Assembly (NCBI GenBank): GCA_037445955.1 | Contig: JBBIJM010000004.1 | Span: forward strand, 5,542-69,541 | DNA: 64,000 nucleotides | Source: Syntrophobacterales bacterium | GTDB lineage: Bacteria > Desulfobacterota > Syntrophia > Syntrophales > CAMTWB01 | Reading direction: 5' to 3' | Shown here: positions 12,950 through 31,439 of the stretch, in pieces | Layout: each line of letters starts with the position of its first letter | Numbering within the stretch: position 1 is the stretch's first letter | The notes under the pieces: model-generated | Seen by the model: only the letters and a program-made list of their open reading frames with translations | Database searches by the model: none | Told to the model about the DNA's origin: nothing | Translations under genes and position numbers: made by a program

Positions 12950-13007
12950 CTGGTCCTTTCTCCTGCCCCGGCCAAGCCCTGATAAATCACGTCCCTGCCC
13001 AGTTGAT

Positions 13008-14246: not shown

Positions 14247-14416
14247 GATGCCCCTCCTTTAACTGCCCATTGATTGCCGGGAGTTCCCCGGATCAATCCC
14301 CGCTTCCCTCCCGCCTTACAGACCGGCTATATAGCACACCGGCTTACGGGAATACAATATCTCTTGACCGGCAGTATCCCCCGCCGTATAGTTCCCTGAA
14401 GCAAAGGAAGACGCCA

Positions 14417-16351
14417 ATGATAAAGGCCGGATACGACCCGAAATTGAAGGTCGGGGTTATCGTCTCAAGCGAGGATCTGATCGGCAAGATAAACCGCCTG
14501 GCAAAATCACGGTGGGACCAGGTGCACACGAGGCTTATCTGCGGTCTCGATGAGGCCGTCCCGGTGGGCCGGGAGATGGAGGCCTCCGGCTGCGACGTCG
14601 TGATCAGCCGGCGGGGAACGGCGGAGATCCTGCGGGAAAAACTTACGATCCCCGTTTTGGCCCTCATGGCCAATCCCCTGGATATCCTCATCAGCATAAG
14701 AAAGGCGGTCATTTTCGGCAAACGGATCCTCATCACCAGTTTCAGAAAGCAAATGACCGGCATGGATATCCTGGAGGAGATATACCAGGTTAGGATCTTC
14801 CAGGGCATATATCATGACAGCCCCAGCTTGAATCAGGTCATCGGCAAGGCCCGGGAAAAGGGGGTGGAAGTGATCATCGGCGGCGGTGTTTCCATGAAAT
14901 TCGCCGACACTTACGGGCTTAAAGGGGTCGAGCTCTACATTTCCGAAGAGGCCGTGGCCTTTGCCGTCGAAGACGCCTTGGCCTTGGCGAGACTGAGGCG
15001 CCAGGAGCAGGAGAAGTCGCGGCGATACCAATGCATCATTGATTCCTCATCCGACGCGATCCTCTCGGTCAATCGGGAAGGCGTCCTCACCACAATGAAC
15101 AGGGCCGCTCGGGATCTCTTGCGGATCCGTGATTGTCAGGAGGAATCTCACCGCCTGATCGATTACCTGCCGGAATCCGATTTCCGGCGGATTTTCCAGA
15201 CAAAACAACCCCTCTTGAACAAATTGGAAAAGGTATCAAACCTTCTCTATCTGGCAAACCATTTCCCGATCAACGTCAATGAAGAGGTGGCCGGGGTGGT
15301 TTCGATCATGAAAAATACCGCAAACGTCATCAAAGACGAAAACGAGGTCCGGAGAAACTTCGCCAAGGGCCTCGTGGCGAGGTTCACCATCGATGACCTG
15401 ATCCATAAAAGCACCGGGATGGCCGAAGCGGTGAGGAAGGCGAAAAGATACGCCCTGTCCGATTCCACCGTCCTGATAACCGGGGAGACGGGCACGGGCA
15501 AGGAGGTCCTGGCCCAGGGCATCCATAACCTAAGCGACCGGTCCAGAGGGCCTTTCGTCTCTCTCAACTGCGCCGCCCTGCCGGAGCAACTTTTGGAAAA
15601 CGAGTTGTTCGGTCATGAAGAGGGGGCCTTCACCGGCTCCCGGAAGGGGGGCAAGATCGGCCTTTTTGAGCTGGCCCATACCGGAACGATCTTTCTTGAC
15701 GAGATCGCCTCAACCCCTCCGGGCGTCCAGGCGACCCTCCTGCGGGTCCTTGAGGAAAAAAAGGTGATGAGGATCGGCAGCGACCGGCTCATTCCCATCG
15801 ACGTCCGGGTGCTGGCCGCCTCCAACAGAGACCTCGCCGCCGAGGTCCGGGCGGGACGATTCCGGGATGATCTCTTCTTCCGGCTGAACGTGCTTTCGAT
15901 CCGGCTTGCCCCCCTGCGGGAGAGGATGGAAGAACTGCCCGTCATCGTCGCCCATTGTGTGAATAAGATAGCCGCCAGGTACAGGATCCCGCCCTTGTCC
16001 CTCCCGGAGGACTGCCTAAGGCGGCTTATGTCCTACGTTTGGCCGGGCAACGTCCGGCAGGTCGAAAACTTCCTGGAAAGACTGATCCTCGCCGCCGACT
16101 CTTTCACCCCCGGGGTCTTCGACGAGCTTTTTGAGGAGATTTGCCAGGTCACCCTGCCTGAGCCGGCCCGGGAGACGTCGGGGAAAAAACATCAGCTCGA
16201 GAGACAGGCCCCGCCCGAGGGCACGAACCTCGAGGAGATCCTGCTTGAGGCCCGGTTCTGCAAAACCAAAGCGGCCGCTTTGCTTGGCATCAGCAGGACC
16301 ACCTTATGGCGCAAACTGAAAAAACACGGGCAGAACCGACCGGACCGATAA
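14417..16351 (+). CDS. sigma-54-dependent transcriptional activator, PrpR-N-type sensor + PAS + AAA+ + Fis HTH
   Basis: ATG at 14417 follows AAGGAAG. The AAA+ core has GETGTGKE (Walker A), ENELFGHEEGAFTGS (GAFTGA-type loop) and FLDEI (Walker B). The C-terminal HTH is LLGISRTTLWRKLKKHG. The N-terminal ~200 aa resemble the propionate-catabolism activator (PrpR_N) domain. Confidence 0.85.
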   Translation: MIKAGYDPKLKVGVIVSSEDLIGKINRLAKSRWDQVHTRLICGLDEAVPVGREMEASGCDVVISRRGTAEILREKLTIPVLALMANPLDILISIRKAVIFGKRILITSFRKQMTGMDILEEIYQVRIFQGIYHDSPSLNQVIGKAREKGVEVIIGGGVSMKFADTYGLKGVELYISEEAVAFAVEDALALARLRRQEQEKSRRYQCIIDSSSDAILSVNREGVLTTMNRAARDLLRIRDCQEESHRLIDYLPESDFRRIFQTKQPLLNKLEKVSNLLYLANHFPINVNEEVAGVVSIMKNTANVIKDENEVRRNFAKGLVARFTIDDLIHKSTGMAEAVRKAKRYALSDSTVLITGETGTGKEVLAQGIHNLSDRSRGPFVSLNCAALPEQLLENELFGHEEGAFTGSRKGGKIGLFELAHTGTIFLDEIASTPPGVQATLLRVLEEKKVMRIGSDRLIPIDVRVLAASNRDLAAEVRAGRFRDDLFFRLNVLSIRLAPLRERMEELPVIVAHCVNKIAARYRIPPLSLPEDCLRRLMSYVWPGNVRQVENFLERLILAADSFTPGVFDELFEEICQVTLPEPARETSGKKHQLERQAPPEGTNLEEILLEARFCKTKAAALLGISRTTLWRKLKKHGQNRPDR

Positions 16352-16363
16352 TGGTGTCAGATA

Positions 16364-16489
16364 ATGGTGTCAGGTCTACACTCTTGACAAGAGTTAAAAA
16401 AAGGGCGGAGGGCGGTGTTTCTTTTTCCTGACTCGACCGCTGATAAATATCAAGAAAATATCGAGTGAATAGTGTAGACCTGACACCAT
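16364..16489. repeat. perfect 19-bp inverted repeat separated by 88 bp
   Basis: ATGGTGTCAGGTCTACACT (16364-16382) is the exact reverse complement of 16471-16489. The left arm is preceded by a tandem 13-bp repeat, ATAATGGTGTCAG x2 (16348-16373), which overlaps the regulator stop codon. Confidence 0.9.
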
Positions 16490-16495
16490 GCTAGG

Positions 16496-16551
16496 TGAAA
16501 CTTATTGTTTCATCTATGAAACTTAATGTTACTCTGAAACTGACTGTTTCA
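16496..16551. promoter_or_regulatory. three tandem 17-bp dyads TGAAAC-N5-GTTTCA (candidate enhancer/UAS for the sigma-54 activator)
   Basis: Site 1 at 16496-16512 is perfect, site 2 at 16517-16533 is TGAAAC-N5-GTTACT, and site 3 at 16535-16551 is perfect. They lie 57-112 bp upstream of the -24/-12 element. Confidence 0.6.
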
Positions 16552-16607
16552 TCGTCGTCTAAAGGTTAATTAGCCGATTTCTCTGGACATTCCTTCCGAC
16601 CGCCTGC

Positions 16608-16623
16608 TGGCACAAAGATCGCA
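16608..16623 (+). promoter_or_regulatory. sigma-54 (-24/-12) promoter
   Basis: TGGCACAAAGATCGCA matches TGGCAC-N5-TTGCW with correctly spaced GG and GC. It sits 54 bp upstream of the first operon ATG and next to a sigma-54 activator gene. Confidence 0.75.
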
Positions 16624-16676
16624 TGGATGACTCAGTTGTCGTCTTCGGCAATTAAACCTTCGCATCAGGTATCGTC

Positions 16677-17810
16677 ATGGCCGGGTACCCGAAAATATTG
16701 CACACCGAAGAGGCGATGCGGGATGGTTTGCAGATCGAAGATAAAGATATTCCCGCCGCCGACAAGATCCTTCTCTTGGACGCCCTGTCCGAAACCGGCC
16801 TCAAGGAAATCGCCGTGGGCTCCTTTGTCTCTCCCCGGTGGACGCCGCAGATGGCCTCGATCGAGGAGGTGGTGAGGGGATTCACCCCCCGGCCCGGGGT
16901 CCGATACACCTATCTGGCTCTAAACGATAAGGGCCGGGAACGGGCCCGGGCCTTCATCCCCCCTTTGTCGCCCCCGGTTGCCGACTATTCGACCAGGGTG
17001 GATATGTGCGATGTCTTCGCCCAGAGAAACAACAACCGGACCCAGCTCAAGCAGATCGAGAGCTGGTCCGGGGTGGTCACTCGGGCGAAGGCCGCAGGCC
17101 TTACCGAAGGCGGCATGGCGCTCAGCAACCCCTGGGGCTCCAACTGGACCGGGGATGTCACCCAGGATGAGCGCCTGGGGATGCTCGAGAGGATGCATCG
17201 GCTCTGGACCGAGGCGGGATTTACCGTAACCAGGATCGGTTTTTTCGACGCCATGAGCTGGAATATGCCCGGCCAGGTGGCCGCACAACTGGCGGTGATC
17301 AAAGAGCGCTGGCCTTCCATCACCGATTTTCAGCTCCACCTTCACAACGGCCGGGGAACGGCCCTCACCTCGGTCTGGGCCGCCCTCGGGGTTCTGGACA
17401 GCGGAGACACCCTGCGGCTCCAGAGCGCAATCGGCGGCATGGGCGGCTGCCCCTATTGCGGAAACGGCCGGGCGGCGATGATGATCCCCACGGAGGATCT
17501 GATGCATCTTCTTGAGGAAACGGGTATTTACACCGGCGTCGATCTTTACCGGCTGGTAGAGGCGGTCTGGCTTGCCGAAAAAATAGTCGGCCATCCCCTC
17601 TCCGGCCATGTCTCCAAGGCCGGGCCGAGGCCGAGGGGAAGGCGCCTCTACCCCCTTGACCTGCCCTGTATCGAGACCCTGGATCAGGCAAAACACTTTA
17701 TCCTAGGCCCCGGGGCCTATGAAGGAGCCCCTTCCCCCTGGCCGGAGCCGATCAGAAGCCACCAGCGGCCGGATTCACAGTTGAAAAAGGAGACAATATG
17801 CAGCGATTAA
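16677..17810 (+). CDS. HMG-CoA-lyase-like (HMGL/DRE-TIM family) lyase with C-terminal extension
   Basis: Motifs MRDGLQIE, HLHNGRGTAL and GGMGGCPYCG correspond to the RDGLQ, HxH and GGCPY motifs of the HMGL family. At 377 aa it is about 70 aa longer than typical members. Confidence 0.7.
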   Translation: MAGYPKILHTEEAMRDGLQIEDKDIPAADKILLLDALSETGLKEIAVGSFVSPRWTPQMASIEEVVRGFTPRPGVRYTYLALNDKGRERARAFIPPLSPPVADYSTRVDMCDVFAQRNNNRTQLKQIESWSGVVTRAKAAGLTEGGMALSNPWGSNWTGDVTQDERLGMLERMHRLWTEAGFTVTRIGFFDAMSWNMPGQVAAQLAVIKERWPSITDFQLHLHNGRGTALTSVWAALGVLDSGDTLRLQSAIGGMGGCPYCGNGRAAMMIPTEDLMHLLEETGIYTGVDLYRLVEAVWLAEKIVGHPLSGHVSKAGPRPRGRRLYPLDLPCIETLDQAKHFILGPGAYEGAPSPWPEPIRSHQRPDSQLKKETICSD

Positions 17811-19591
17811 ACGGCGGACAGATCATCGTCGATTATCTGATCCAGGAGAAGGTTCCCTACCTGTTCGGGCTGTGCGGCCACGGCAACATCAGCTTCCTCG
17901 ATGCCCTCTATGAGAGATCCCGGGAAATCAAGACCGTCTCGGTCCATCATGAATCGGTCTCCGGGTTTATGGCCGACGTGTTCTACCGGGTGTCCGGGAG
18001 GCCGACTGCGACCTTTACCTCCTGCGGGCCGGGCTCGGCAAACCTGCCGATCTGCCTGGCAAACTCCTTCTTCGATTCGGTGCCCTTTCTCGCCGTCACC
18101 GCCAATGTTCCGACGAGCCAGTTCAATCGGGGGGCCTTTCAGGAAACCTACCGCCATTATCAGGCCGACTTCCCCTCGACGGTTAAGGCCTACTGCAAGA
18201 AAGTCTTCCAGCCGACCCGGGCGGACATGGTTCCCCTGGCCATCCGGCAGGCTTGGAAAACCATGGTGACCGGACGCCCCGGCCCGGTAGTCCTCGATGT
18301 TCCCTTCGACATCTTCAAGGAGGAAACGGACCTGGAAATGCCCCAGGCCGCCCTGTGGAACGGCAATATCAGCTGCCGCGCCGGCGCCGACCCGGAAGGG
18401 GTCGTCAAGGCGGTAGATATGCTGCTTCAGGCGGAAAAACCCGTTATCCTGGTAGGCCAGGGGGTAAAGTACGCCCAGGCAACCGGAGAGCTCCTCGCCC
18501 TGGCGGAGCGGCTGAAGATCCCCGTCGCCTCTTCCGCAAGCGGCATGGGGGCTCTCGACGCAAGGCATCCGCTCGCCCTGGGCCTGGTGGCCAGAAACGG
18601 AACCTATCAGGCCAACCACGCCGCCCGTCAGGCGGACGTGCTGCTGGCTTTGGGGGTAAGATTTGACGACCGGACCTCAAGCAGTTGGATTCCCGGCTAC
18701 TCTTTTTCCATACCTCCCACCCGGCTTATCCACGTGGACATAGACCCCGAGGAGATCGCAAGAAACTACCCTGTTGCCCTGGGGCTGATGGCCGACGTCA
18801 AGACCTTTCTCAGACAGTTACTGGCGGAGCTCGACCGGCGGAAACTCGCGGCGGAGATTCCGCCGGGCCGGGCTGACTGGCTTGCGGCGATAGACGGCTA
18901 CCGGAGAGAGTGGGAGGCCTTTATCGCCCCGGGGTTCCGGACGGACACAACCCCGATCCACCCCCAGCGGGCGGCCTGGGAGATCGACCGGGTCCTCCCG
19001 GAAGAGGCGATCCTGGTTAGCGACATCGGCGTCCACCACAACTGGCTGATCCAGTTCTGCCGGCCGAGACGCCAGGACTCCCTAATAGGCTCCATGGGGT
19101 TCGGCCCGATGGGCTTCGGGGTAGCCGGGGTGCTTGGGGCGAAACTCGCCGCCCCGGACCGCCCCTGCGTCTCGGTATGCGGAGACGGGGCCTTCTTCAT
19201 GCACGCAAGCGTCCTGGGCACGGCCTTCGAGTACGACATCCCGGTGGTGTGGGTGGTGTGGAACAACTACGCCTACGCCTCTATCCGGGGTCTCCAGCGG
19301 GGCTATTTAGAGGGCCGGGAACTTGCCACCGACTTCCGCCATCCGGCGACCGGCGAGCCCTACAATCCGGATTTCGCCGCGATGGCCCGCTGTGCCGGTA
19401 TCGACGGGGTAAGGGTGGATACGGCCAAAGACTTAGGCGAGGCGATCGAGCAGGCCGTCAAAGCGGGCAGGCCCTGTCTGATCGACGCCGACATCGCAGG
19501 CGAGATGAATCCGGCGGGCGCGGGGGTCTGGGAGTTGCCCGGCCTCGGCCATGGCCGGCCGGCGATTGGCGTCCGTTACGACGGCAGGTAA
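17798..19591 (+). CDS. thiamine-diphosphate-dependent enzyme (acetolactate synthase / IolD-like family)
   Basis: 597 aa with the three-domain ThDP layout. The N-terminal PYR domain carries HESVSGFMADVFYR, and the C-terminal ThDP motif is GDGAFFM...NN. A good RBS (AAAGGAG) precedes the ATG at 17798. Confidence 0.75.
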   Translation: MQRLNGGQIIVDYLIQEKVPYLFGLCGHGNISFLDALYERSREIKTVSVHHESVSGFMADVFYRVSGRPTATFTSCGPGSANLPICLANSFFDSVPFLAVTANVPTSQFNRGAFQETYRHYQADFPSTVKAYCKKVFQPTRADMVPLAIRQAWKTMVTGRPGPVVLDVPFDIFKEETDLEMPQAALWNGNISCRAGADPEGVVKAVDMLLQAEKPVILVGQGVKYAQATGELLALAERLKIPVASSASGMGALDARHPLALGLVARNGTYQANHAARQADVLLALGVRFDDRTSSSWIPGYSFSIPPTRLIHVDIDPEEIARNYPVALGLMADVKTFLRQLLAELDRRKLAAEIPPGRADWLAAIDGYRREWEAFIAPGFRTDTTPIHPQRAAWEIDRVLPEEAILVSDIGVHHNWLIQFCRPRRQDSLIGSMGFGPMGFGVAGVLGAKLAAPDRPCVSVCGDGAFFMHASVLGTAFEYDIPVVWVVWNNYAYASIRGLQRGYLEGRELATDFRHPATGEPYNPDFAAMARCAGIDGVRVDTAKDLGEAIEQAVKAGRPCLIDADIAGEMNPAGAGVWELPGLGHGRPAIGVRYDGR

Positions 19592-19616
19592 TTTCGAAGG
19601 GAAACAGGAGGATCAA

Positions 19617-21032
19617 ATGTCAAGGACCCTAACGGAGGCAGAGAGAAGCCTGGCCCGGGAGCTGCTTGCGCGGGCCAGAGAGGCCATGGCGGCCATCGAG
19701 CATTACGACCAGAAACAGGTGGACCGGCTCTGCCAGGCCATGGCCTGGCAGCTTTACAACGAACAAAATGCCGTCAGGCTGGTGAACATGGCGGTCGATG
19801 AAAGCGACCTGGGGGATCGGGTTCCGGCCAAAAGGTTCAAGGTCCTGGGGGTGCTCCGGGATGCCCTGAGGCTAAAGAGCATCGGGATCATCGAGGAGAT
19901 CCCCGAAAAGGGAATCGTAAAATACGCCAAACCGGCGGGGGTCATCTGCGCCTTGAGCCCTACGACCAATCCCCTGGTGACCCCGATGAGCGTGGGAATC
20001 TACGGGATCAAATGCAAAGACGCGGTCATTTTCAGCCCCCATCCCGCAAGCAGGAAGACCTCGACGGAAATCGTCCGCCTGATGCGGCTTGCCCTCGAGA
20101 AGGCCGGGGCGCCGGCGGACCTGCTCCAGTCGGTGGAGAAGCCGAGCATCCCCCTGGCCCAGGAGTTGATGACCCTCTGCGACCTCACCGTCGCCACCGG
20201 CGGCTCGGCGATGGTGAAATCCGCTTACAGCTCCGGAAAGCCGGCCTACGGCGTCGGGCCGGGGAACTCGACGATGGTGATCGACGAAACCGCCGACATC
20301 GAGGAGGCCGCCCGCAACACCCGGCTCAGCAAAACCAACGACAACGGCGCCGGCTGCTCCGCCGACGGGAACCTTGTCGTTCACGCCTCGATCTACGACC
20401 GGTTTCTTATCCAGTTGCAGAAGGAAGGCGGCTACCTCTGCACCGAAGGGGAAAAGGAGCTGGTCCGCCGGGTCTGGTGGGACGAGGAAGGCCACCGGAT
20501 CGTCAAGACCGTCGCCCGGCCGGCCTGGAAGGTGGCGGAGCTGGCGGGCTTCAAGCTCCCCGAAGGCAAGACCTTCCTCATCGTCAAGGAGGACAAGATC
20601 GGCCGGGAGCACCTCTTCTCCAGCGAAAAACTGGGCACGATGCTCGCGATTTTCAAGTACCAAGGCGAGTTCGAGGCCGCCTTGGATATGGTGCGGCGGC
20701 TCTACGAGGTGGGGGGCAAGGGTCATTCCTGCGGGATATATTCGTTCAACGACGATCATATCCACCGGCTCGCCCTGATGGCGCCGGTCAGCCGGATCAT
20801 GGTGAGACAGCCCCAATCGAAGGCCAATGCGGGCTCCTTCACTAACGGCATGCCGATGACGGCCAGTCTGGGCTGCGGCTACTGGGGAGGAAATATCACC
20901 AATGAAAACATCCACCTGAAGCATTATATGAACGTTACCTGGGTCAGCCGGCCGATCCCGGAGGACCGGCCGACGGAAGAGGAGCTGTTCGGCGAATTTT
21001 ACGGAAGCGAGATTTTCGAAGCGGGAGAATGA
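19617..21032 (+). CDS. CoA-acylating-type aldehyde dehydrogenase (EutE/PduP/SucD-like)
   Basis: ATG at 19617 follows CAGGAGG. It is ~470 aa with the ALDH fold and a candidate catalytic Cys in NDNGAGCSAD, resembling acylating ALDHs. Confidence 0.65.
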   Translation: MSRTLTEAERSLARELLARAREAMAAIEHYDQKQVDRLCQAMAWQLYNEQNAVRLVNMAVDESDLGDRVPAKRFKVLGVLRDALRLKSIGIIEEIPEKGIVKYAKPAGVICALSPTTNPLVTPMSVGIYGIKCKDAVIFSPHPASRKTSTEIVRLMRLALEKAGAPADLLQSVEKPSIPLAQELMTLCDLTVATGGSAMVKSAYSSGKPAYGVGPGNSTMVIDETADIEEAARNTRLSKTNDNGAGCSADGNLVVHASIYDRFLIQLQKEGGYLCTEGEKELVRRVWWDEEGHRIVKTVARPAWKVAELAGFKLPEGKTFLIVKEDKIGREHLFSSEKLGTMLAIFKYQGEFEAALDMVRRLYEVGGKGHSCGIYSFNDDHIHRLALMAPVSRIMVRQPQSKANAGSFTNGMPMTASLGCGYWGGNITNENIHLKHYMNVTWVSRPIPEDRPTEEELFGEFYGSEIFEAGE

Positions 21033-21093
21033 GGTCGTTTTATCTCCCTTTTTAGGTTCTAAAAGCGATTTACCCCACCAGGAGGGCTTGGCC

Positions 21094-23058
21094 ATGCTTA
21101 AATCTCGGGCAGATCGGGCGGTATTCATCGAGGAAGGGGCCGGCAAGAGGGTCCTCAGCGGGTTCTGGGATCTCCTGGTCAAGACGATCGCCCTGGCCAC
21201 CGCGATCTTCTACCTCTATACCGCCCTGGTCGGCCAGCTCGGGCCGGAATACCACCGGGGGATATTTGTTCTGGCCATCGTGGTGATGATCTTTCTGCTC
21301 TATCCGGCCACCTCCCGTTCCCCGAAAGACCGCCCCAGCCTTTTTGACATCCTTATGGTATTGCTAACCATCCTCTCGGTCGGCTACTGGATCTGGGAGT
21401 ACACCGACCTGGTCTATCGGGTGGGGGCCTACCTCCCCCGGGACTTCTGGTTCGGGGTGATCGGGCTTATCGTCTGCCTGGAGGCGGGGCGCCGGGTGAC
21501 GGGCTGGCTGATTCCCATCCTGGGGGGTCTCGCCCTGCTCTACGGCCTCTACGGCAATTATATCCCCGGGGTTTTCGGCCATCGCGGCTTTACCATCAAA
21601 CGTCTCGTCGAGTATATATACCTTACCTCGGAGGGCCTCTTCGGGGTGATGGCCAGCGTTTTACCTTCCTATGTCCTGCTGTTCCTCCTTTTGGGGGCGT
21701 TCCTCAAGGTCTCCGGGGTGGGGCAGTTCTTTATCGATGTCCCCATGTCCTTAGCCGGCCGTTCGACGGGAGGACCGGCGAAGGTGGCGGTGGTGGCCTC
21801 CGGTCTGTTCGGCTCGATCAACGGGAGCGTGCTGGCCAATACGGTAAGCACTGGATCGATCACGATCCCCCTGATGAAAAAGGTGGGCTACCGGCCCCAC
21901 GTGGCCGCCGCAGTGGAAACGGCCGCCTCGACCGGCGGGATGATCATGCCGCCGATCATGGGGGCCGGGGCCTTTCTCATGGTGGAGCTCACCGGCGTTC
22001 CCTACACCCAAATCGTCAAGGTTTCGTTCATCCCGGGGATCCTCTTCTTCCTGTCGATCTTTTTCATTGTCCATTTCGAGGCGAAACGCAGCAGGATCCC
22101 CGGCATCCCGAAGGCGGAAATCCCCGTATTTAAAGAGGTGATCCGCCGGGGCTGGTATCTCATCGCCCCCTTTGTGATCCTCGTGGTCCTGCTCTTTTCC
22201 GGTTTCTCCCCCAACTACTCCGCTTTCTGGACCATCGTCTCGGTGATTGTGGTGAGCTGGTTTCGCCCCGAGACCCGGATGGGCCTGCGGCAGGTGGCAA
22301 ACTCCCTCATCGACGGGATGATGTCCGCCCTCACCGTAGGCAGCCTGATGGGGGCCATCGGCATCTTTATCGGCATCGTGGTGATCACCGCGGCGGGCCT
22401 GAAATTCTCCAACGCTCTGATCGGCCTGTCCGGCGGCAACCTGTTTCTGGCGCTTGCACTGGTGGGACTTGCGGCTCTGGTACTGGGCATGGGAATGCCC
22501 ATCACCCCGGCCTACCTGCTGCTCGCCGTGCTCGCCGCCCCGGCCCTAAAAACGATGGGCGCCGATCTGCTGGCGGCCCACCTGGCCATCTTCTGGCTCA
22601 GCGCTACTTCCAATATAACCCCGCCGGTCTGTCTCGGGGCCTATTGCGCGGCAGGCATCGCCAACGCCAGCCCCTGGAAGACGGCGTTTACCGCCTTCAG
22701 GTTCGGGCTGATCCTCCTGCTCATGCCGTTTCTCTTCATCTTCGAAGACCACTTCCTCCTAACCGGCCTCTGGTACCAGAATCTCTGGGCGGTCGTCTTC
22801 ACCACCCTGGGGGTCATCGGCTACTCCGCCTGGACGATGCGTTACGCCTTCACCGAGACGACGATTCCCGAATTTTGCCTGCTTTTCGCCGTCTGGATCG
22901 CCCTGCTCTGGCCTATGTGGCAGGTGGAAGCTATCGGCCTGGTTTTGGGGGCGCTTTTCATAATTTTGCATTGGCTCAGATACCGGAATCTCCGAAGGCC
23001 ACCCGAGTTCGAAAGCGGGCCTCGGGAAAAGCCCCTGGGACCTGGAAAGGGTGCCTAG
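21094..23058 (+). CDS. TRAP transporter fused permease (TAXI-type 4TM/12TM fusion)
   Basis: A ~650-aa polytopic membrane protein with many hydrophobic helices. It is followed by a TAXI receptor gene. ATG at 21094 lies 7 nt after CAGGAGGG. Confidence 0.75.
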   Translation: MLKSRADRAVFIEEGAGKRVLSGFWDLLVKTIALATAIFYLYTALVGQLGPEYHRGIFVLAIVVMIFLLYPATSRSPKDRPSLFDILMVLLTILSVGYWIWEYTDLVYRVGAYLPRDFWFGVIGLIVCLEAGRRVTGWLIPILGGLALLYGLYGNYIPGVFGHRGFTIKRLVEYIYLTSEGLFGVMASVLPSYVLLFLLLGAFLKVSGVGQFFIDVPMSLAGRSTGGPAKVAVVASGLFGSINGSVLANTVSTGSITIPLMKKVGYRPHVAAAVETAASTGGMIMPPIMGAGAFLMVELTGVPYTQIVKVSFIPGILFFLSIFFIVHFEAKRSRIPGIPKAEIPVFKEVIRRGWYLIAPFVILVVLLFSGFSPNYSAFWTIVSVIVVSWFRPETRMGLRQVANSLIDGMMSALTVGSLMGAIGIFIGIVVITAAGLKFSNALIGLSGGNLFLALALVGLAALVLGMGMPITPAYLLLAVLAAPALKTMGADLLAAHLAIFWLSATSNITPPVCLGAYCAAGIANASPWKTAFTAFRFGLILLLMPFLFIFEDHFLLTGLWYQNLWAVVFTTLGVIGYSAWTMRYAFTETTIPEFCLLFAVWIALLWPMWQVEAIGLVLGALFIILHWLRYRNLRRPPEFESGPREKPLGPGKGA

Positions 23059-23117
23059 AAGATCGCCGGATCTGGAAATGACAACCTAAACCTTATAAGG
23101 AAAGGGAGGTTCTGACG

Positions 23118-24140
23118 ATGAAAGCAAAAGGGATAAGCAAAGACGCAAAAATGAACGCACTTGCCCGGGGAATAGGACTTTTTACCGCAATCCTCTTTAT
23201 CGGCGTCGCCTCTTACGGCCACGCCCAGACAGATCCCGCGAGAAAGGCCCTTTCTTTCTCCGGAGGCTCGCCCGGGGGCAATTACAATCTGGTGACCACG
23301 GCCCTGTCGCCCCTGCTTGCGGCAGGCCCCTCAAAAATCCGGGTCTTCCCCGAGGGGAGCACGGGGTCGCCGGAAAACATCCGCCGGATCCACTCGGGGG
23401 AGGCGGATCTGGGGCTGGCCTTCGCCTCGGACCTTACCGAGGCCTGGATGGGCGAGGGTCGGTTTAAGACCCCCCTCAAGAATCTCCGGGCCCTGGCCTT
23501 TGTCGATGCCAACATCGCCCATCTGGTCGTCCTGGCAAAAAGCGGAATCACCCGGATCGAGGATATCTACGACAAGAAGGTCGCCCTGGGGCCGCAGGGC
23601 TCCGGATCGTCGATGAACATTGAGCGGCTCCTCCGCCACCTGGGTGCCTGGGAGCAGGTGCGGCGAAACGCCGTGTACACCGGGGCGATGGACGCCTCCC
23701 AGGGCTTGAAGGACGGGCATATCGCCGCTTACAACTGGCACGTGAACATCGGGAACGCCACCTACCACGATACCGCCTCTTCCCACGACATCCGGATCAT
23801 CGATCTCGATGCGCCCGCCCGGGCCTCGGGATTCTACAAAAAATATCCCTTCTACACCCCCTTCACGATCCCCGGCGGGATCTACCGGAGCGTTGATCAG
23901 CCCGTCAGAACCTGGGCGACCCCGACCTTCTGGATCGTCAGGGATACGTTTCCCGAGGATTTGGCTTACGAACTTGTGAAGGTCGCCTTTTCCGACGACT
24001 CGATCCGCAAGATGCACGAGGCGGTGGGCCTGACGGCCAGACTGAACTACGGCCGGGATAAGGCCCTGCAGGGCATTCCGATTCCTCTTCACCCGGGCGC
24101 CGTCCGGTACTGGAAGGAGATGGGATATCCGGTGCCGTAA
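23118..24140 (+). CDS. TAXI-family TRAP solute-binding protein
   Basis: It has a signal peptide (LFTAILFIGVASYGHA) and the GGSPGGNY motif typical of the TAXI/immunogenic-protein family. Length is 340 aa. Confidence 0.75.
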   Translation: MKAKGISKDAKMNALARGIGLFTAILFIGVASYGHAQTDPARKALSFSGGSPGGNYNLVTTALSPLLAAGPSKIRVFPEGSTGSPENIRRIHSGEADLGLAFASDLTEAWMGEGRFKTPLKNLRALAFVDANIAHLVVLAKSGITRIEDIYDKKVALGPQGSGSSMNIERLLRHLGAWEQVRRNAVYTGAMDASQGLKDGHIAAYNWHVNIGNATYHDTASSHDIRIIDLDAPARASGFYKKYPFYTPFTIPGGIYRSVDQPVRTWATPTFWIVRDTFPEDLAYELVKVAFSDDSIRKMHEAVGLTARLNYGRDKALQGIPIPLHPGAVRYWKEMGYPVP

Positions 24141-24217
24141 GGTCTGCCCTTCGGGACACCGGGTTCAGGAGCCCCCCCGGGGAGGGACAGGGGGTTGCCA
24201 GTCGAAAGGAACAGTCG

Positions 24218-25366
24218 ATGAGGCTGCTTGAATATCAGGGGAAGGAACTCTTCCGGCGCTACGGCATCGCCATCCCGAGAGGCAGGCTTATCGAGGAGAA
24301 AAGGGAGATCGGCCGGATCTTCAGGGACTTGGACCAAGGCAGAGGGGTCGTCCTCAAAAGTCAGGTTCTCACCGGAAAAAGGGGACAAAATGGAGGGATC
24401 CTGTTTGCCGAAACCCCAGGCCGGTGCGCATTTCTTTACGACGAACTGATCAACCTGACAATTTCCGGCCAGCCCGTAAGGAAGATCCTGATGGAGGAGC
24501 GGATCGAGGGCGACCGGGAATTCTATCTCGGCATCACCGTGGATGCTGAAGCACGCGGGCCTCTGGTTATGATCTCCCCCTGCGGGGGCGGCAGGCTGGA
24601 GGATCAAGCCCGATTGAGGCCGGATTCGCTAGTCCGAATCCCCATCGACATAAATTACGGCCTGCTTGACTATCAGGCCCGGGAGGCCCTGTTTCGCCTG
24701 GCCCTGCCGCAAGAACTTATCCCCTCCCTTACCGAACGGATGAGGCAACTCTATCGTCTCTTTAGGGAAACAGACGCCGTGACCGCCGAGATCAACCCGC
24801 TTATCTACGCCTCCGGAAGGGGATTCGTCGCTTTAGATGCCCGGGTGGAAATCGACGACTCGGCCCTGTACCGGCAGACGGATATCCTGGAGATGAAATC
24901 CTGCCACGAACCCCAGATTGAAAACGTCCTGCGAGACGATTACCGGCTGGAATACGTCGAGCTCGACGGGAACATCGGGGTGATCAGCGGCGGGGCCGGT
25001 TTGACCATGGCCGCGATGGACTGCCTTGCCCTGGCCGGGGGGAGGCCGGCCTGTTTCCTCGATTGCAGCGCCAATGTAAGCGCCACGGGCTACGAAATGG
25101 CCTTGAGAACCCTCAATACGAGAAAGGCCGTCGATTGCATTCTGGTGAATTTTTTCGGGGGCATAACCAGAATGGACCGGGTCGGCCAATTTATTCTCGA
25201 GGCCCTGGAAAGGATCGGAGGTCTCGACAAGCCGCTTATCATCAGGCTCGAGGGCACCGACGCGCCAAAGGGACGGGCGATCATCGGCGAGGCCGGCCTT
25301 GCGCAATGCGATACCTTCGAGGAGGCGATTGAAACAGTCCTGGCCCTGGCAGGGAAAGACCGATGA
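24218..25366 (+). CDS. SucC-like ATP-grasp beta subunit of an ADP-forming acyl-CoA synthetase
   Basis: MRLLEYQGKELFRRYGI resembles SucC MNLHEYQAKQLFARYGL, and there are INPL and GNIGVISGGAGL segments. It is clearly more divergent from E. coli SucC than its partner is from SucD. Confidence 0.75.
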   Translation: MRLLEYQGKELFRRYGIAIPRGRLIEEKREIGRIFRDLDQGRGVVLKSQVLTGKRGQNGGILFAETPGRCAFLYDELINLTISGQPVRKILMEERIEGDREFYLGITVDAEARGPLVMISPCGGGRLEDQARLRPDSLVRIPIDINYGLLDYQAREALFRLALPQELIPSLTERMRQLYRLFRETDAVTAEINPLIYASGRGFVALDARVEIDDSALYRQTDILEMKSCHEPQIENVLRDDYRLEYVELDGNIGVISGGAGLTMAAMDCLALAGGRPACFLDCSANVSATGYEMALRTLNTRKAVDCILVNFFGGITRMDRVGQFILEALERIGGLDKPLIIRLEGTDAPKGRAIIGEAGLAQCDTFEEAIETVLALAGKDR

Positions 25367-26244
25367 GCATCCTGATCGACAGCTTAAGCCGGGTGCTCGT
25401 CCAGGGAATTACCGGCCGGACCGGAAGTTTTTTTTCCCGGGATATGCTGGGCTACGGGACAAGGATCATAGCCGGCGTGACCCCGGGCAAGGGGGGCGCA
25501 AGGATAGAGAACGTACCTGTCTTCAATTCGGTGAGCGAGGCCCTGGCGGAGGCGGAGGCCGACGTGTCGGCGCTGTTCGTCCCCGGGGCGGCCGCCAGAG
25601 ACTCCATATTCGAGGCCATCGCCTGCGGGATCAAGCTGATCGTCTATCCGGGCGAGAATATGCCTATCCACGACATGATGGATGTAACGCGTAAACTGAA
25701 GGAGAGCTCTTGCCGGATGATCGGCCCCAACACCCCGGGGATCATCTCTCCCGGCGAGGCAAAGATCGGCTTTATGCCCTCTTGCTGTTATCGCAAGGGG
25801 AATGTCGGGGTCGTTTCCCGCAGCGGTTCCCTCTCCTACGAGATTACCTCCGGCCTCACCCGGGCCGGAATCGGCCAGTCGACGGCTGTGGGTATAGGGG
25901 GAGATCCGGTAAAGGGAATGGGCTTCGTCGAGGTGTTGGCGCTTTTCGAAGAGGATCGGGGGACTCAGGCGGTCGTCCTGATAGGGGAGATCGGGGGAGG
26001 CGAGGAGGAGGAGGCGGCGGCGTTCATCGCCCGGGGAATGAAAAAGCCGGTCATTGCCTTTATAGCGGGGCGGTATTCGCCGGCAAACAAGAAGATGGGC
26101 CATGCGGGAGCGATCATAAGCGACGGCCGAGGCACCTACGAAGCCAAGATTGAGGCCCTGAAAGGGGCGGGGGTAAGGATCGCCCAGCGGCCCTTCGAAA
26201 TCCCCGCTCTAGTGAAGGAGGCGCTGGCCCTGCCCTCAAGGTAA
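25363..26244 (+). CDS. SucD-like CoA-binding alpha subunit of an ADP-forming acyl-CoA synthetase
   Basis: MSILID...[18 protein letters not shown] and the phosphohistidine context MGHAGAIIS closely resemble SucD. It shares an ATGA overlap with the beta gene. Confidence 0.85.
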
Positions 26245-26304
26245 GCCAAGGGGAAACGCAAGGGGAAATTATCGGGAAGAAAGAAGATGACCAAAGGAGA
26301 GGGA

Positions 26305-27108
26305 ATGGAAAAAGTCTTGGTAAACGGCGTCGAGCTGGCCTACCGCCTCGACGGTCAACCGGCGGGAAGGGTGGTCATGCTGAGCAACAGTCTGATGACC
26401 GATCACACCATGTGGGACATTAATCTGCCCGCCCTCACCGACCGCTATCGGGTGCTCCGTTACGACACCCGGGGTCACGGCCGGTCGGGTCTGACCCCCG
26501 GGCCCTATACCCTGGAACTTCTGGCGGAGGATGCCATCGGCCTGCTCGATTCTCTGGGCATTGCCAAGGTCCATTTTGTCGGGTTATCGGTGGGCGGGAT
26601 GATCGGCCAGCAGATCGGCGCCCGGTTTCCCCAGCGGGTGCATTCCCTGGCCCTCTGCGATACGGCAAGCGAATGGCGGGTACGGACCGTCTGGGACGAG
26701 CGCTTCGCCATCGTGGCGGCCAAAGGGATAGCGGGCCTGGTGGATTCGACCATCACCCGCTGGTTTACCGCGGAGTTTATCGCCGCGAACCCGGAAACGA
26801 TAGACAGGATCAGACGGATGATCGCCCGGACCAGTCAAGATGGTTATCTGGCCTGCGGCGCCGCCATCCGGGAACTGGCCCAGACCACGATGCTCCTTCA
26901 GATCAAGGCCCCCACCCTGGTACTGGCAGGGCAGCAGGATCCCGCCTGCACCGTCGAAAACGCCACGGTGATCCATCGGCTGATTGCGGGCTCCAAGCTC
27001 GTGATCATCGAAGACGCGGCCCACCTCTCCAATGTCGAGCAGCCCCGGGCCTTTAACGCCGCTCTGCGCAATTTCTTAGACGAGGCAGATAAGGACGTGG
27101 GGGGATAA
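26305..27108 (+). CDS. alpha/beta-fold hydrolase (3-oxoadipate enol-lactonase-like)
   Basis: The nucleophile elbow is GLSVGG and the layout resembles the PcaD family. ATG at 26305 follows AAAGGAGAGGG; an alternative ATG lies at 26287. Confidence 0.65.
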   Translation: MEKVLVNGVELAYRLDGQPAGRVVMLSNSLMTDHTMWDINLPALTDRYRVLRYDTRGHGRSGLTPGPYTLELLAEDAIGLLDSLGIAKVHFVGLSVGGMIGQQIGARFPQRVHSLALCDTASEWRVRTVWDERFAIVAAKGIAGLVDSTITRWFTAEFIAANPETIDRIRRMIARTSQDGYLACGAAIRELAQTTMLLQIKAPTLVLAGQQDPACTVENATVIHRLIAGSKLVIIEDAAHLSNVEQPRAFNAALRNFLDEADKDVGG

Positions 27109-27149
27109 CAATCTGAGGGCTTTGAAGAAGTATCCGAAGGAGGCAGACG

Positions 27150-27659
27150 ATGGCAGGCATACCGGCCTGGCAGATGAAGATGACGGCACCCCTTGAGGTG
27201 GGAATCTCGACGGAAAACATCGAGGTCATGCTCGATTTTTACATAGAAACCGTCGGTTTGAGGCCCGTTGCCGACAATATCGTTCCGCCGGAGATGAGCC
27301 GGCTCACCGGGGCGACAGACGACGGGTACCGCATCGTCCGCCTCCAGACCCCCTACGGCGAGCGGATCAAACTCGTCCAGACCGGCCGTCCCCCGAAAAG
27401 GGCCAAAAGGATGCCCGGGGTATTTAACCGGCACGGCCTGGCTTACCTGACCTTCATGATCGCCGATTTGGACGGGATGATCGGGCGGCTCTCAGACCGG
27501 GGGATAGAGATCCTCGGAAACGGCAGAAAGATCGAGGTCAGGCCGGGACTGTTTGCCGTATTCACCCGGGACCCGGAAGGCAACGTGGTTGAGTTTGTCG
27601 AGTATCCGGATATCGCCTCGTACCGCCCCGACCTCTACCGGTGGCGGCAATTCTTCTAG
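27150..27659 (+). CDS. VOC (glyoxalase/bleomycin-resistance/dioxygenase) family protein
   Basis: 169 aa with the paired beta-alpha-beta-beta-beta pattern (FYIETVGL ... DPEGNVVEFVE). A strong RBS (AAGGAGG) is present. Confidence 0.55.
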   Translation: MAGIPAWQMKMTAPLEVGISTENIEVMLDFYIETVGLRPVADNIVPPEMSRLTGATDDGYRIVRLQTPYGERIKLVQTGRPPKRAKRMPGVFNRHGLAYLTFMIADLDGMIGRLSDRGIEILGNGRKIEVRPGLFAVFTRDPEGNVVEFVEYPDIASYRPDLYRWRQFF

Positions 27660-27739: not shown

Positions 27740-28537
27740 TCAAGGGCCTGCCAGGCCCCGCGTCCGCCCCATAAGGGCCCGGAGGCGGTCGGGGTGATTG
27801 GTGATGATTCCGGAGACGCCCCGGGCGAGAAACCAGCTCATCTCGGCCTCGTCGTTGACCGTCCAGACGTTCAAGATGAACCCCCGCCGTCCTGCCTCCT
27901 CAATGGTCTCGGCGGACAGGGTGCCTCTCCCGCAGTTCAAAACCGGGTAGAGGCCGGAGAGAGCCTCCTCCGATTCAGGCCAGGGACTGTTCAGAAGGAG
28001 GGCCACCTCCGCCCGGCCGTTCTCCTGCTTGATCCGCTTGAGGGCCGGGGGATAGAAGGAAGAGAAGAGCACACCGTTTAACATGCCCGCCTCTTGAACC
28101 TTGGCCAGGGTCCGGCAGGCGAGATCGTCCATGGTATAGGAGCCAAGATAACCGAGCTTGATTTCGATGTTGACAAGGATCTTTCCCTTGCAGAAGGCCA
28201 GGACCTCCTCCAGGGCGGGGATCTTCTCGCCGGCAAACTCCCTGCCGAACCAGCCGCCGGCGTCAAAGCCGCGGAGAGCCGCCAGAGGGTAGTCCGCAAC
28301 GAGGCCGGAGCCGCTGGTGGTGCGCTCCAGGGTATCGTCATGGATAACCGCCACCTCCCCGTCGGCGCTCAAGTGAACGTCAAGCTCGATCATATCCGCC
28401 CCGCAGGCAACCGCTCCGGCAAAGGCGGCCAGGGTATTTTCCGGGGCGGCGCCGGAGAAACCACGATGGGCAATGACCAGCGTCGGTAATCCCCCGGGAT
28501 CCCTGCCGGCCCGACTTAATATCTGCAGTACGGACAT
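27740..28537 (-). CDS. ugpQ: glycerophosphodiester phosphodiesterase
   Basis: VIAHRGFSGAAPENTLAAF and ELDVHLSADGEVAVIHD are canonical GDPD motifs. The gene follows ugpC as in E. coli ugpBAECQ. Confidence 0.8.
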   Translation of the reverse strand: MSVLQILSRAGRDPGGLPTLVIAHRGFSGAAPENTLAAFAGAVACGADMIELDVHLSADGEVAVIHDDTLERTTSGSGLVADYPLAALRGFDAGGWFGREFAGEKIPALEEVLAFCKGKILVNIEIKLGYLGSYTMDDLACRTLAKVQEAGMLNGVLFSSFYPPALKRIKQENGRAEVALLLNSPWPESEEALSGLYPVLNCGRGTLSAETIEEAGRRGFILNVWTVNDEAEMSWFLARGVSGIITNHPDRLRALMGRTRGLAGP

Positions 28538-28541
28538 TGCC

Positions 28542-29618: not shown

Positions 29619-29631
29619 TAATTGTGCTCCT

Positions 29632-31364: not shown

Positions 31365-31439
31365 TCTCTCCTCCAAAAAGGTGGGCCCCCTCGCCGGGGA
31401 CCCACCACAGGAATCACAGGTTAGCTGGCATCCGACCGC

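Follow-up and report, generated by a model that had tools for sequence, protein, structure and literature searches.

A sigma-54-controlled nine-gene operon, apparently for organic-acid catabolism, with a recurrent lyase, thiamine enzyme and aldehyde dehydrogenase core

Several described systems combine enzyme families that also meet in a nine-gene operon at positions 16677-27659 of a 64 kb stretch of DNA from a Syntrophobacterales bacterium (assembly GCA_037445955.1, contig JBBIJM010000004.1). We call the whole stretch the window, and our gene-context and promoter scans of this genome refer to it. In the two-step ATP-citrate-lyase system of Hydrogenobacter, citryl-coenzyme A (CoA) synthetase (CcsAB), an ADP-forming ligase of the SucCD family, makes a 3-hydroxy-3-carboxy-acyl-CoA, which a separate citryl-CoA lyase (Ccl) splits into acetyl-CoA and a 2-oxo acid. 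The sulfoacetate pathway SauCD-SauS-Xsc of Bilophila and Cupriavidus uses a SucCD-like ligase, a CoA-acylating aldehyde dehydrogenase (ALDH) and a thiamine diphosphate (ThDP) enzyme of the acetolactate synthase (ALS) superfamily (PMC10413351). In the lower pathway of meta-cleavage, a hydrolase and a hydratase are followed by the aldolase DmpG/BphI and the acylating dehydrogenase DmpF/BphJ. Members of the ALS superfamily also open cyclic 1,2-diones to omega-oxo acids, as in the myo-inositol route (IolG-IolE-IolD) and in cyclohexane-1,2-dione hydrolase (Cdh).

The operon in the window resembles these systems in part. It shares its three families with SauCD-SauS-Xsc, which usually comes with a binding-protein-dependent secondary transporter; however, none of the three proteins here reaches the Sau or Xsc cut-offs, sulfite-handling genes are absent, and the operon further encodes a CoA-ester lyase, an enol-lactonase and a VOC protein. 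In contrast to Ccl, its lyase has the HMGL fold and not that of citrate synthase, and its SucC-like subunit scores only 109 bits against the large subunit of citryl-CoA synthetase. Further, the operon differs from CcsAB and Ccl in being catabolic and sigma-54-inducible, with a transporter and an extra entry through the ThDP enzyme and ALDH. With meta-cleavage it would share 4-hydroxy-2-oxo acids as substrates, the use of a DRE-TIM lyase and a CoA-acylating aldehyde dehydrogenase, and acetyl-CoA as an end product. However, the order that we propose is the reverse, with decarboxylation and thioesterification preceding cleavage of the CoA ester. The ALDH is also of the EutE/SucD type rather than the DmpF type, and the lyase resembles 3-hydroxy-3-methylglutaryl-CoA (HMG-CoA) lyase, with no DmpG communication domain detected by Pfam.

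Every protein of the operon falls in a known superfamily, and the operon is therefore not categorically new. The combination is unusual: this is an orphan catabolic operon with a recurrent core of three enzymes that is apparently undescribed. Most likely, it imports an oxo- or hydroxy-dicarboxylic acid or a lactone and cleaves it to acetyl-CoA. Targeted full-text searches of the literature gave no natural pathway with a matching combination of enzymes. Only synthetic pathways were found in the literature on malyl- or citramalyl-CoA reductase, homocitryl-CoA and 4-hydroxy-2-oxoglutarate decarboxylase. No natural pathway emerged from the literature on quinate or dehydroquinate ring cleavage by a ThDP enzyme, nor from that joining citryl-CoA lyase, a thiamine enzyme, ALDH and 4-carboxy-4-hydroxy-2-oxoadipate (CHA). 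The initial annotation of this DNA had likewise been able to name no pathway for the enzyme set, a judgement that these searches uphold, since they returned either nothing or analogues from synthetic biology. The set is, however, not as singular as that annotation suggests, for its core trio recurs in metagenomes.

Operon structure and control

The cluster is a genuine operon of nine closely packed genes, and it has a sigma-54 activator of its own. All nine structural genes lie on the forward strand, with gaps of at most 77 nt and two overlaps. They encode, in order, an HMGL-family acyl-CoA lyase (377 aa; 16677-17810), an ALS-like ThDP enzyme (597 aa; 17798-19591), and a CoA-acylating ALDH of the Clostridium kluyveri SucD, SauS or EutE type (471 aa; 19617-21032 in the public gene call, with a longer reading frame from 19551). 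These are followed by a fused TAXI-type TRAP permease (21094-23058), a TAXI solute-binding protein with an N-terminal signal-like segment (23118-24140), a divergent SucC-like beta subunit of an ADP-forming acid-CoA ligase (24218-25366) and its SucD-like alpha subunit (25363-26244). A PcaD-type alpha/beta-fold enol-lactone hydrolase (26287-27108) and a VOC-fold protein (169 aa; 27150-27659) complete the series. Two junctions are overlaps, one of 13 nt between the lyase and ThDP genes (17798-17810) and one through a shared ATGA between the genes for the ligase subunits (25363-25366), while the other junctions are gaps of 25, 61, 59, 77, 42 and 41 nt, in that order. Ribosome-binding sites of the GGAG type precede most starts and are weak or absent at those of the lyase and SucC-like genes. 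A promoter and terminator scan found no sigma-70-like site in the cluster 3′ of the sigma-54 promoter, and the intragenic terminator-like matches have short stems with poor T-tails.

This layout agrees with the initial annotation in the coordinates of the reading frames, their packing on one strand and both overlaps, and its family names were each confirmed with Pfam and NCBIfam. It had, however, placed ten genes after the promoter; nine follow it, and the tenth, the activator gene, lies upstream. Could the nine genes form a mosaic, in which a lyase-ThDP-ALDH-transporter unit and a SucCD-hydrolase-VOC unit merely share a promoter, or in which SucCD is a housekeeping enzyme? Relatives of the ALDH, ThDP enzyme and lyase come from soil Proteobacteria and from Acidobacteria-like contigs, those of SucCD from Syntrophobacterales, and all nine genes were found together in no other contig except those of near-identical strains. 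Nor did tblastn with the lyase, ThDP enzyme, ALDH and SucC-like protein recover the whole set on any plasmid. Nonetheless, such a mosaic is extremely improbable in view of the short gaps, the single sigma-54 promoter and the failure to find internal promoter or terminator signals. The SucC-like protein is moreover non-canonical, and homologues of the VOC protein occur both beside SucCD (contig L097) and near the ALDH (contig L109).

The sigma-54 promoter, of the -24/-12 type, was found by pattern scan at 16608-16623 on the forward strand (TGGCACAAAGATCGCA, or TGGCAC-N5-TCGCA). It is the sole match to TGGCAC-N5-TYGCW in the 64 kb, where 0.05 would be expected by chance. Two perfect TGAAAC-N5-GTTTCA palindromes (16496-16512 and 16535-16551), with a degenerate third copy at 16517-16535, lie 60-110 bp 5′ of this promoter and mark out a region of putative upstream activator sites on the same strand (16496-16553). 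The palindrome pattern has 0.09 matches expected by chance, and two were reached in none of 100 shuffles. These palindromes are likely the sites at which the activator binds. Neither the sigma-54 motif nor the activator-site motif was found in the related loci L089-L111.

The activator, a sigma-54 enhancer-binding protein, is encoded at 14270-16351 on the forward strand, with an alternative start possible at the ATG at 14414 on the basis of the N-terminal sequence. Pfam assigns it PrpR_N (119.6 bits), PAS, Sigma54_activat (219.6) and a Fis-type helix-turn-helix (HTH_8, 39), and its AAA+ domain has the Walker A motif GETGTGKE and a GAFTGS loop. The architecture of PrpR_N, AAA+ and HTH_8 is that of PrpR and LvaR, the regulators of prpBCDE and lva, and those systems have in common with the operon a -24/-12 promoter and an upstream, non-divergent position of the activator. 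Yet the activator here has an extra PAS domain and scores 392.6 against the NCBIfam PrpR equivalog TIGR02329, under the cut-off of 499.2. The genes it controls are also unrelated to the prp or lva genes, and prpBCDE is not adjacent. In the proposed mechanism, this PrpR_N-PAS protein would sense the acid or a derivative, bind the TGAAAC-N5-GTTTCA sites and open the sigma-54 promoter.

A repeat element occupies 16344-16496, between the stop codon of the regulator and the activator sites. It comprises a 25-nt inverted repeat (16364-16388 and 16465-16489), the arms of which are 92% complementary and 76 nt apart, and a tandem 13-mer (GATAATGGTGTCA). It could be the terminator of the regulator gene, or an element resembling repetitive extragenic palindromes (REP) or miniature inverted-repeat transposable elements (MITE).

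The recurrent core of thiamine enzyme, aldehyde dehydrogenase and lyase

The best NCBIfam match of the ALDH is SauS (453, under the cut-off of 600), and its nearest structure is the succinyl-CoA reductase of C. kluyveri (CkSucD; PDB 8CEI, 306 bits). In CkSucD, Cys242 is catalytic, and Ser243 and Lys70 bind the acyl group at its distal carboxylate (PMC10249356). Cys247, Ser248 and Lys75 of the ALDH align with C242, S243 and K70 of that enzyme. Among 57 relatives and the window protein, Cys247 and Ser248 are present in 58 of 58 sequences and Lys75 in 56.

Relatives of the ALDH were collected by a pattern scan of JGI metagenomes. This gave 600 matches, 571 of which encode ALDH relatives, and gene neighbourhoods were taken from the best 80, which are 69-86% identical to the window protein. 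Partner genes were counted within about 4 kb of the ALDH in 22 well-flanked loci, with at least 2.5 kb on either side. An ALS-like ThDP gene is near the ALDH in 19 of these, and an acyl-CoA lyase of some kind in 16. In 13 loci the lyase is a 259-aa citrate-synthase-type protein encoded directly upstream of the ALDH, and it scores 282.7 against the NCBIfam citryl-CoA lyase (cut-off 212), a likeness to the Ccl system; in the remaining 3 it is HMGL-like (284, above the cut-off of 246). Both a ThDP enzyme and a lyase accompany the ALDH in 15 of the 22; CoA-transferase and SucCD are both missing from 14 of these 15. Indeed, SucC was found in none of the 80 loci. The core trio is present in hundreds of metagenome contigs, mostly from soil, and the operon in the window is itself an instance of it, with the lyase, ThDP and ALDH genes consecutive. 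One ALDH subfamily thus occurs with two non-homologous types of lyase and at least two ThDP subfamilies, usually without an enzyme of CoA activation, which argues that these enzymes work as a unit, with the ALDH feeding the lyase. Most simply, the ThDP enzyme would provide the aldehyde from which the ALDH forms the thioester for the lyase.

In a common arrangement of this module (for example L136:2742-17257, L187 and L172), a citryl-CoA-lyase-like gene (259 aa) is followed by genes for a SauS-like ALDH, an ALS-like ThDP enzyme and an ACS-type transporter of the major facilitator superfamily (MFS). These and our other examples of the module are drawn from the JGI metagenome contigs L109-L188 (for L131, the stretch 5638-13694). 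The usual companions are the ACS-type MFS transporter, a pyrroloquinoline quinone (PQQ) dehydrogenase, a ThuA-like protein and a TonB-dependent receptor, the latter three often divergent. In some loci an HMG-CoA lyase stands in for the citryl-CoA-lyase-like protein. The closest relative of the ALDH (86%, L109) has an HMGL-like gene immediately after it, and a 65% homologue of the VOC protein is encoded nearby on the other strand. Further, on plasmids of Ponticoccus alexandrii (p-SCP4) and Shinella sumterensis (L105 and L106), an HMG-CoA lyase gene adjoins, and is divergent from, a cluster that comprises a 43% ALDH homologue, an iron-dependent alcohol dehydrogenase (Fe-ADH), GntR and a DctPQM TRAP transporter. 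The content of this cluster would fit the oxidation of a hydroxy-acid alcohol (for example, a mevalonate-like one) via the aldehyde to a cleavable CoA ester.

From these associations we infer an order of reactions and a class of substrate, whereas the gene structure, the promoter, the family memberships, the catalytic motifs and the recurrence of the trio are direct observations. We tentatively favour, with somewhat less than even confidence, an inducible operon for an anionic C5-C7 oxo- or hydroxy-di- or tricarboxylate, or an enol-lactone, with a core that runs from the ThDP enzyme through the ALDH to the lyase. The TAXI-TRAP system would import the substrate. The ThDP enzyme would make an omega-oxo acid (a semialdehyde) with a distal carboxylate, most simply by decarboxylating a 4-hydroxy-2-oxo acid; alternatively, it might reach the same carboxy-semialdehyde by opening a cyclic alpha-dicarbonyl, as IolD and Cdh do, or an acyloin. 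The ALDH would then oxidise the semialdehyde to a 3-hydroxy-3-substituted dicarboxylyl-CoA of the malyl-, citramalyl-, citryl-, homocitryl- or HMG-CoA type, and the HMGL-type lyase would split this ester into acetyl-CoA and a 2-oxo acid or another carbonyl compound. A hypothetical worked example would lead from a 3,4-dione derived from 3-dehydroquinate to homocitrate semialdehyde, homocitryl-CoA and, finally, acetyl-CoA and 2-oxoglutarate. The initial annotation had proposed a sigma-54/PrpR_N-controlled route for the uptake and C-C cleavage of a hydroxy- or oxo-carboxylic acid or lactone, and this general proposal holds. Neither of its two reaction orders is the best fit, as the partners of the ALDH are the ThDP enzyme and the lyase, usually without a ligase or transferase.

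If the proposed order is correct, 4-hydroxy-2-oxo acids or ring-opened carbocyclic acids would pass straight to acetyl-CoA, by a route that needs no aldolase, no pyruvate dehydrogenase and no oxygen. We speculate, as a possibility on the doubtful side, that the trio represents an undescribed and widespread strategy in which a carboxy-semialdehyde becomes a thioester and then a 3-hydroxy-acyl-CoA is cleaved. This strategy would replace the aldolase cleavage of 4-hydroxy-2-oxo acids, or would provide an oxygen-independent, non-aromatic route from rings of the dehydroquinate or quinate type, or from lignin-derived pyrones, to acetyl-CoA and a central oxo acid. The operon in the window would then be an anaerobe's version, extended by an enol-lactonase, a VOC isomerase or hydratase without metal ligands, and a non-canonical SucCD whose glycine loop is altered and whose specificity is for a new acid. 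The core, which sometimes sits beside quinate/shikimate genes and PQQ dehydrogenases, may account for an unrecognised share of the turnover of plant acids and lignin-derived carbon. The window also offers orphan families for study. These are a ThDP enzyme conserved at 78-85% between phyla, a clade of SucC proteins whose glycine loop is rewritten, a VOC subfamily that lacks metal ligands, and a subfamily of HMGL lyases with a conserved C-terminal domain.

The lyase scores 46.1 bits against Pfam HMGL-like PF00682 (cut-off 29) and 156.1 against the NCBIfam HMG-CoA lyase NF004283, under the cut-off of 246, and it is therefore classed as a relative of the family and not as an HMG-CoA lyase. Aligned with 2FTP and 2CW6, it keeps RDGLQ, the metal ligands HLH and the cysteine loop GGMGGCPY. 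It has in common with HMG-CoA lyase and (R)-citramalyl-CoA lyase, both DRE-TIM metallolyases, the fold, the RDGxQ and HxH motifs and the GGCPY loop. However, it has several insertions, and solved HMG-CoA lyases lack its C-terminal extension of about 65 aa. The extension, put at about 70 aa in the initial annotation, is real and a property of the subfamily, being conserved in homologues at 65-75% identity, which are common in Burkholderiales-type metagenome contigs. The AlphaFold model of the lyase, with a mean pLDDT of 68 and a C-terminal extension below 50-67, was not used. Homologues at 69-73% identity adjoin genes for the large and small subunits of an aconitase-like hydratase, a CaiB-type CoA-transferase, or both, with TctC-type receptors. 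Because the neighbours of the subfamily are a hydratase and a CoA-transferase, the lyase probably works on a hydroxy-carboxy-acyl-CoA ester, and HMG-CoA and citramalyl-CoA lyases likewise have CoA-ester substrates. On the Agrobacterium vitis plasmid pAvCG78a (L189; record 69400-73028), a unit of CoA-transferase, citryl-CoA lyase, a protein of the isocitrate lyase (ICL)/phosphoenolpyruvate (PEP)-mutase family and GntR lies beside a TTT transporter. By its gene content, this unit is predicted to be another activate-then-cleave cassette for a citrate-like acid.

The CoA-transferases beside these lyases also bear on a different order, the first of the two in the initial annotation, in which SucCD would activate a hydroxy-acid (perhaps after a lactonase), the lyase would release acetyl-CoA and a 2-oxo acid such as 2-oxoglutarate, and the ThDP enzyme and ALDH would convert the latter to, for example, succinyl-CoA. 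We consider this order plausible but unlikely. Conversion of an acid to its CoA ester before the lyase is normal for the subfamily, and the genes run lyase-ThDP-ALDH with the first two overlapping. ALS-like 2-oxoglutarate decarboxylases are known, and the ALDH keeps the Lys and Ser that bind the succinyl or mesaconyl group in C. kluyveri SucD. However, 14 of the 15 well-flanked trio loci encode no ligase or transferase that could make the substrate of the lyase, and a private decarboxylase is needless for central 2-oxo acids. The tight adjacency of ALDH and lyase in L109, L131 and the Shinella plasmid is also left unexplained.

The ThDP enzyme has the three ThDP-enzyme domains of Pfam, GDG-X24-NN at residue 462 and a catalytic Glu in HHES. 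It scores 387.6 against ALS TIGR00118, under the cut-off of 538.35, and it is not set in the context of an acetolactate synthase: neither a small regulatory subunit nor ilv genes adjoin it, its neighbours being the lyase and the ALDH. A PDB search gave BbmA (265 bits) and plant ALS (237 bits) as its best solved relatives, and nothing usable was found in the literature on BbmA or CsmA. Structures of 2-hydroxyacyl-CoA lyase (HACL) and oxalyl-CoA decarboxylase (Oxc) are also among the matches (150-168 bits). These would suit a variant of alpha-oxidation that puts ligase, ThDP enzyme, ALDH and lyase to use in one line: SucCD would form a 2-hydroxyacyl-CoA, the ThDP enzyme would cleave it to formyl-CoA and an aldehyde, the ALDH would restore the thioester and the lyase would cleave the shortened 3-hydroxyacyl-CoA. 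Such a route is very improbable, because ALS and BbmA match the enzyme better than HACL or Oxc does, the operon has no gene for handling formyl-CoA or formate, and a CoA-activating enzyme is absent from 14 of the 15 metagenome loci with the trio.

Alpha- and Betaproteobacteria, Acidobacteriota and Spirochaetales have homologues 78-85% identical to the ThDP enzyme, which are named only as thiamine pyrophosphate-binding proteins. Their contexts are heterogeneous, and the substrate of the enzyme therefore cannot be inferred from its neighbourhood. In two cases a LVIVD-like protein (about 392 aa) follows, and in the conserved neighbourhood of L098-L100 the homologue lies near a gene like old yellow enzyme (OYE) or 2,4-dienoyl-CoA reductase. 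Homologues at 50-54% identity, on plasmids of Aminobacter and Antarctobacter, belong to cyclitol-like clusters with Gfo/Idh/MocA and xylose-isomerase-like TIM-barrel proteins, and the Antarctobacter cluster also encodes a dehydroquinase. Herein lies the likeness to the inositol route, together with a minority of the ALDH loci, which carry a type I dehydroquinase (aroD), a shikimate/quinate dehydrogenase, a xylose-isomerase-like TIM-barrel protein and Gfo/Idh/MocA. In contrast to the IolD and Cdh routes, the operon encodes no dehydrogenase or dehydratase that would prepare a dione, and Cdh matches its ThDP enzyme at only 159 bits. The dehydroquinase-bearing loci hint at a non-aromatic route for quinate or shikimate. 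This subset (L154:3-8429, L167:7415-17852, L120:2894-10562 and L122:2761-8295) also encodes a protein of the PEP-mutase/ICL family; in L122 the dehydroquinase adjoins an AroK-AroB fusion and may be biosynthetic.

The lower pathway of protocatechuate 4,5-cleavage, which runs through CHA, 4-oxalomesaconate (OMA) and 2-pyrone-4,6-dicarboxylate (PDC), was considered and rejected as the role of the ALDH loci. LigB, LigI/J-type amidohydrolases, RraA, PrpF and HpcH were found in none of the 80, and its intermediates stay as one candidate class of substrate.

Ligase, transporter, hydrolase and VOC protein

The genes for the TAXI receptor and the fused permease are adjacent, and both products are above curated cut-offs (TIGR02122, 222.7 against 84.35; TIGR02123, 649.2 against 320.65). 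The structures nearest to the receptor bind glutamate; the key Gln that binds the amino group is Phe here.

The SucD-like subunit passes the cut-off of its family (NF004230, 383.6 against 336) and, as initially annotated, retains the phosphohistidine motif MGHAGAI, at residue 245. The SucC-like subunit scores 329.7 against NF001913, under the cut-off of 370, so that the lyase, ThDP enzyme, ALDH and SucC-like protein each fall short of a characterised equivalog. It belongs to a small clade (47-62% identity) from Syntrophobacterales and Smithellaceae contigs, all other matches being at most 42%. A scan of genome contigs with this protein was uninformative on its distribution, as matches to the universal EYQGKELF motif dominated it and nothing but housekeeping SucC at no more than 42% came back. 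The clade has the loop FLDCSANVS, where SucC of E. coli and one archaeal SucC have FLD(V/I)GGGAT and a SauC-like protein has FLEIGGEAY. Clade members (L089-L097) lie among genes for TctABC, PrpF, a 540-aa ThDP enzyme, a RraA-like protein, an acyl-CoA dehydrogenase, a GcdA-like carboxyltransferase, an enoyl-CoA hydratase, a VOC epimerase, methylmalonyl-CoA mutase and OAD-beta. The clade may comprise glutarate-type or other dicarboxylate-CoA ligases. On one of these contigs (L097), a fragment of PrpR_N (69%), a ThDP fragment and a 55% homologue of the VOC protein accompany a 60% homologue of SucCD.

A ligase of this family could also yield ATP, as a SucCD-like ligase does when it works with an acylating ALDH in sulfonate fermentations (PMC10413351). 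In the corresponding reading of the operon, the second order of the initial annotation, a 2-oxo-dicarboxylate would be decarboxylated by the ThDP enzyme and oxidised to an acyl-CoA by the ALDH, and ATP would be gained, with release of the free acid, through a genuine Desulfobacterota-type succinyl- or glutaryl-CoA synthetase, leaving lyase, hydrolase and VOC protein peripheral. The anaerobe-like host, with its HgdAB-like, AbfD-like, ThyX and GlpABC genes, would suit this, as would the nearest ALDH structure, an acylating succinate-semialdehyde dehydrogenase, and a SucD-like subunit that passes the cut-off for the alpha subunit of succinyl-CoA synthetase. We nevertheless regard it as rather improbable. 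It gives no role to the lyase, though this is the first gene and translationally coupled; the SucC-like subunit is under its cut-off and lacks the universal GGG loop; and relatives of the ALDH are linked to lyases and not to SucCD.

The same three families could, in principle, serve an organosulfonate route, in which a sulfite- or sulfate-reducing host would obtain its sulfite through a SauCD-like ligase, a reductase like SauS and a desulfonating ThDP enzyme like Xsc. SauS is the best family match of the ALDH, SauCD-SauS, with or without Xsc, is a characterised module that occurs, for example, on Azospirillum plasmids, and the host possibly belongs to the Desulfobacterota. Against this, the ALDH is under the SauS cut-off and only 42% identical to the Azospirillum SauS in a sau-xsc cluster, the SucC-like subunit is 37% identical to the SauC-like protein of Azospirillum, and the ThDP enzyme scores 275.9 against Xsc TIGR03457 (cut-off 676.4) and 291.4 against NF005713 (cut-off 620). 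The operon has no genes for a sulfite exporter, sulfite reductase or Pta, no pta or sulfite-exporter neighbour of the ThDP gene was found in the window, and ALDH relatives co-occur with lyases of the citryl-CoA and HMG-CoA types and not with sulfonate genes. On these family cut-offs and this gene context we reject the sulfonate route, which we find scarcely credible.

The hydrolase passes the PcaD-type cut-off (TIGR02427, 279.3 against 255.85) and has the nucleophile elbow GLSVG, with Ser at residue 101; the PcaD structures 2XUA and 3OM8 match it at 193-198 bits. Other beta-ketoadipate genes (pcaC, pcaIJ, pcaF and catC) were found neither in the operon nor in its flanks. The fold of the VOC protein is supported by a Pfam match (PF00903), a confident AlphaFold model (pLDDT 92.8) and Foldseek matches to VOC proteins, and its nearest solved structure is the uncharacterised 1SS4; no functional family was assigned to it. 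It belongs to a rare subfamily, with 504 representatives at E <= 1e-3 among 1.8 billion. Residues E16, Y31, G70, D141, N145 and E148 do not vary, and a cluster of Arg and Lys is conserved. Among 25 aligned sequences of the family no His is conserved, only E16 and E148 being at ligand-like positions, and the His/His/Glu (or His/Gln/His/Glu) set of metal ligands of metal-dependent VOC enzymes (glyoxalase I, methylmalonyl-CoA epimerase and extradiol dioxygenases) is thus lacking. A role in the metabolism of itaconate, 2-hydroxyparaconate or itatartarate has a precedent in the VOC lactonase PA0880; it found no further support and was set aside.

The accessory roles that we propose are much less certain than the order of the core. 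Upstream of the core, an enol-lactone or pyrone might be hydrolysed by the PcaD-type enzyme to give the oxo acid, and the His-less VOC protein might isomerise, tautomerise or hydrate this product. The SucCD-like ligase might convert a free hydroxy-acid to the same CoA ester that the ALDH makes, as a second, ATP-dependent entry. It would then replace the CaiB-type CoA-transferases that adjoin the lyase subfamily elsewhere, and would work with the lyase much as citryl-CoA synthetase does with citryl-CoA lyase.

Several points weigh against the proposed order from ThDP enzyme through ALDH to lyase and its accessory steps. The local gene order is lyase-ThDP-ALDH, with the first two coupled, which equally fits a ThDP enzyme that consumes the product of the lyase. 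The ThDP enzyme of the window is of a different subfamily (37-38% identity) from those usually found beside ALDH relatives, and no ALDH or lyase lies near its 78-85% homologues (L098-L103), whose neighbourhoods are heterogeneous and unrelated. The operon encodes a CoA ligase, which the core does not need, and it encodes no hydratase that would install the 4-hydroxyl on an unsaturated oxo-acid substrate. To judge by the contexts of its clade, the SucC-like protein could act on glutarate or succinate in a later step that yields ATP. The roles given to the VOC protein and the hydrolase are guesses.

Genomic setting

The operon and its activator gene are flanked on both sides by genes of the opposite strand. 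On the left, glpABC and a DUF4405 gene (8969-14246, reverse strand) are divergent from the activator gene; on the right, ugpQCEAB (27740-32774, reverse strand) is convergent with the operon. The gene for the DUF4405 protein (412 aa; 13008-14246, reverse strand) immediately precedes glpABC and stands back-to-back with that of the activator, and a 369-aa reading frame without a family match overlaps it on the opposite strand.

The host is a probable anaerobe or facultative anaerobe by its gene content. Markers in the window are HgdAB-like components, an AbfD/HpaB-like protein, ThyX, a type III pantothenate kinase and GlpABC. Given this content, the VOC protein is unlikely to depend on oxygen for its role. 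Two adjacent genes like HgdA/B (2-hydroxyglutaryl-CoA dehydratase D-component) and a gene of the AbfD/HpaB family (4-hydroxybutyryl-CoA dehydratase-like), at 4400-6771 and 51399-52892, are markers of anaerobic acyl-CoA radical chemistry. These enzymes could connect to operon products of the 2-oxoglutarate or succinate-semialdehyde type.

An Rfam scan of the window gave zero matches. A 510-aa reading frame at 39179-40711 has two Thy1 (ThyX) stretches and is apparently a tandemly duplicated flavin-dependent thymidylate synthase. The neighbourhood of the chromosomal origin, with parA, parB, dnaA, dnaN and gyrB, lies at 55448-62290, and the GC content falls to 0.445-0.48 at 56-60 kb of the window.

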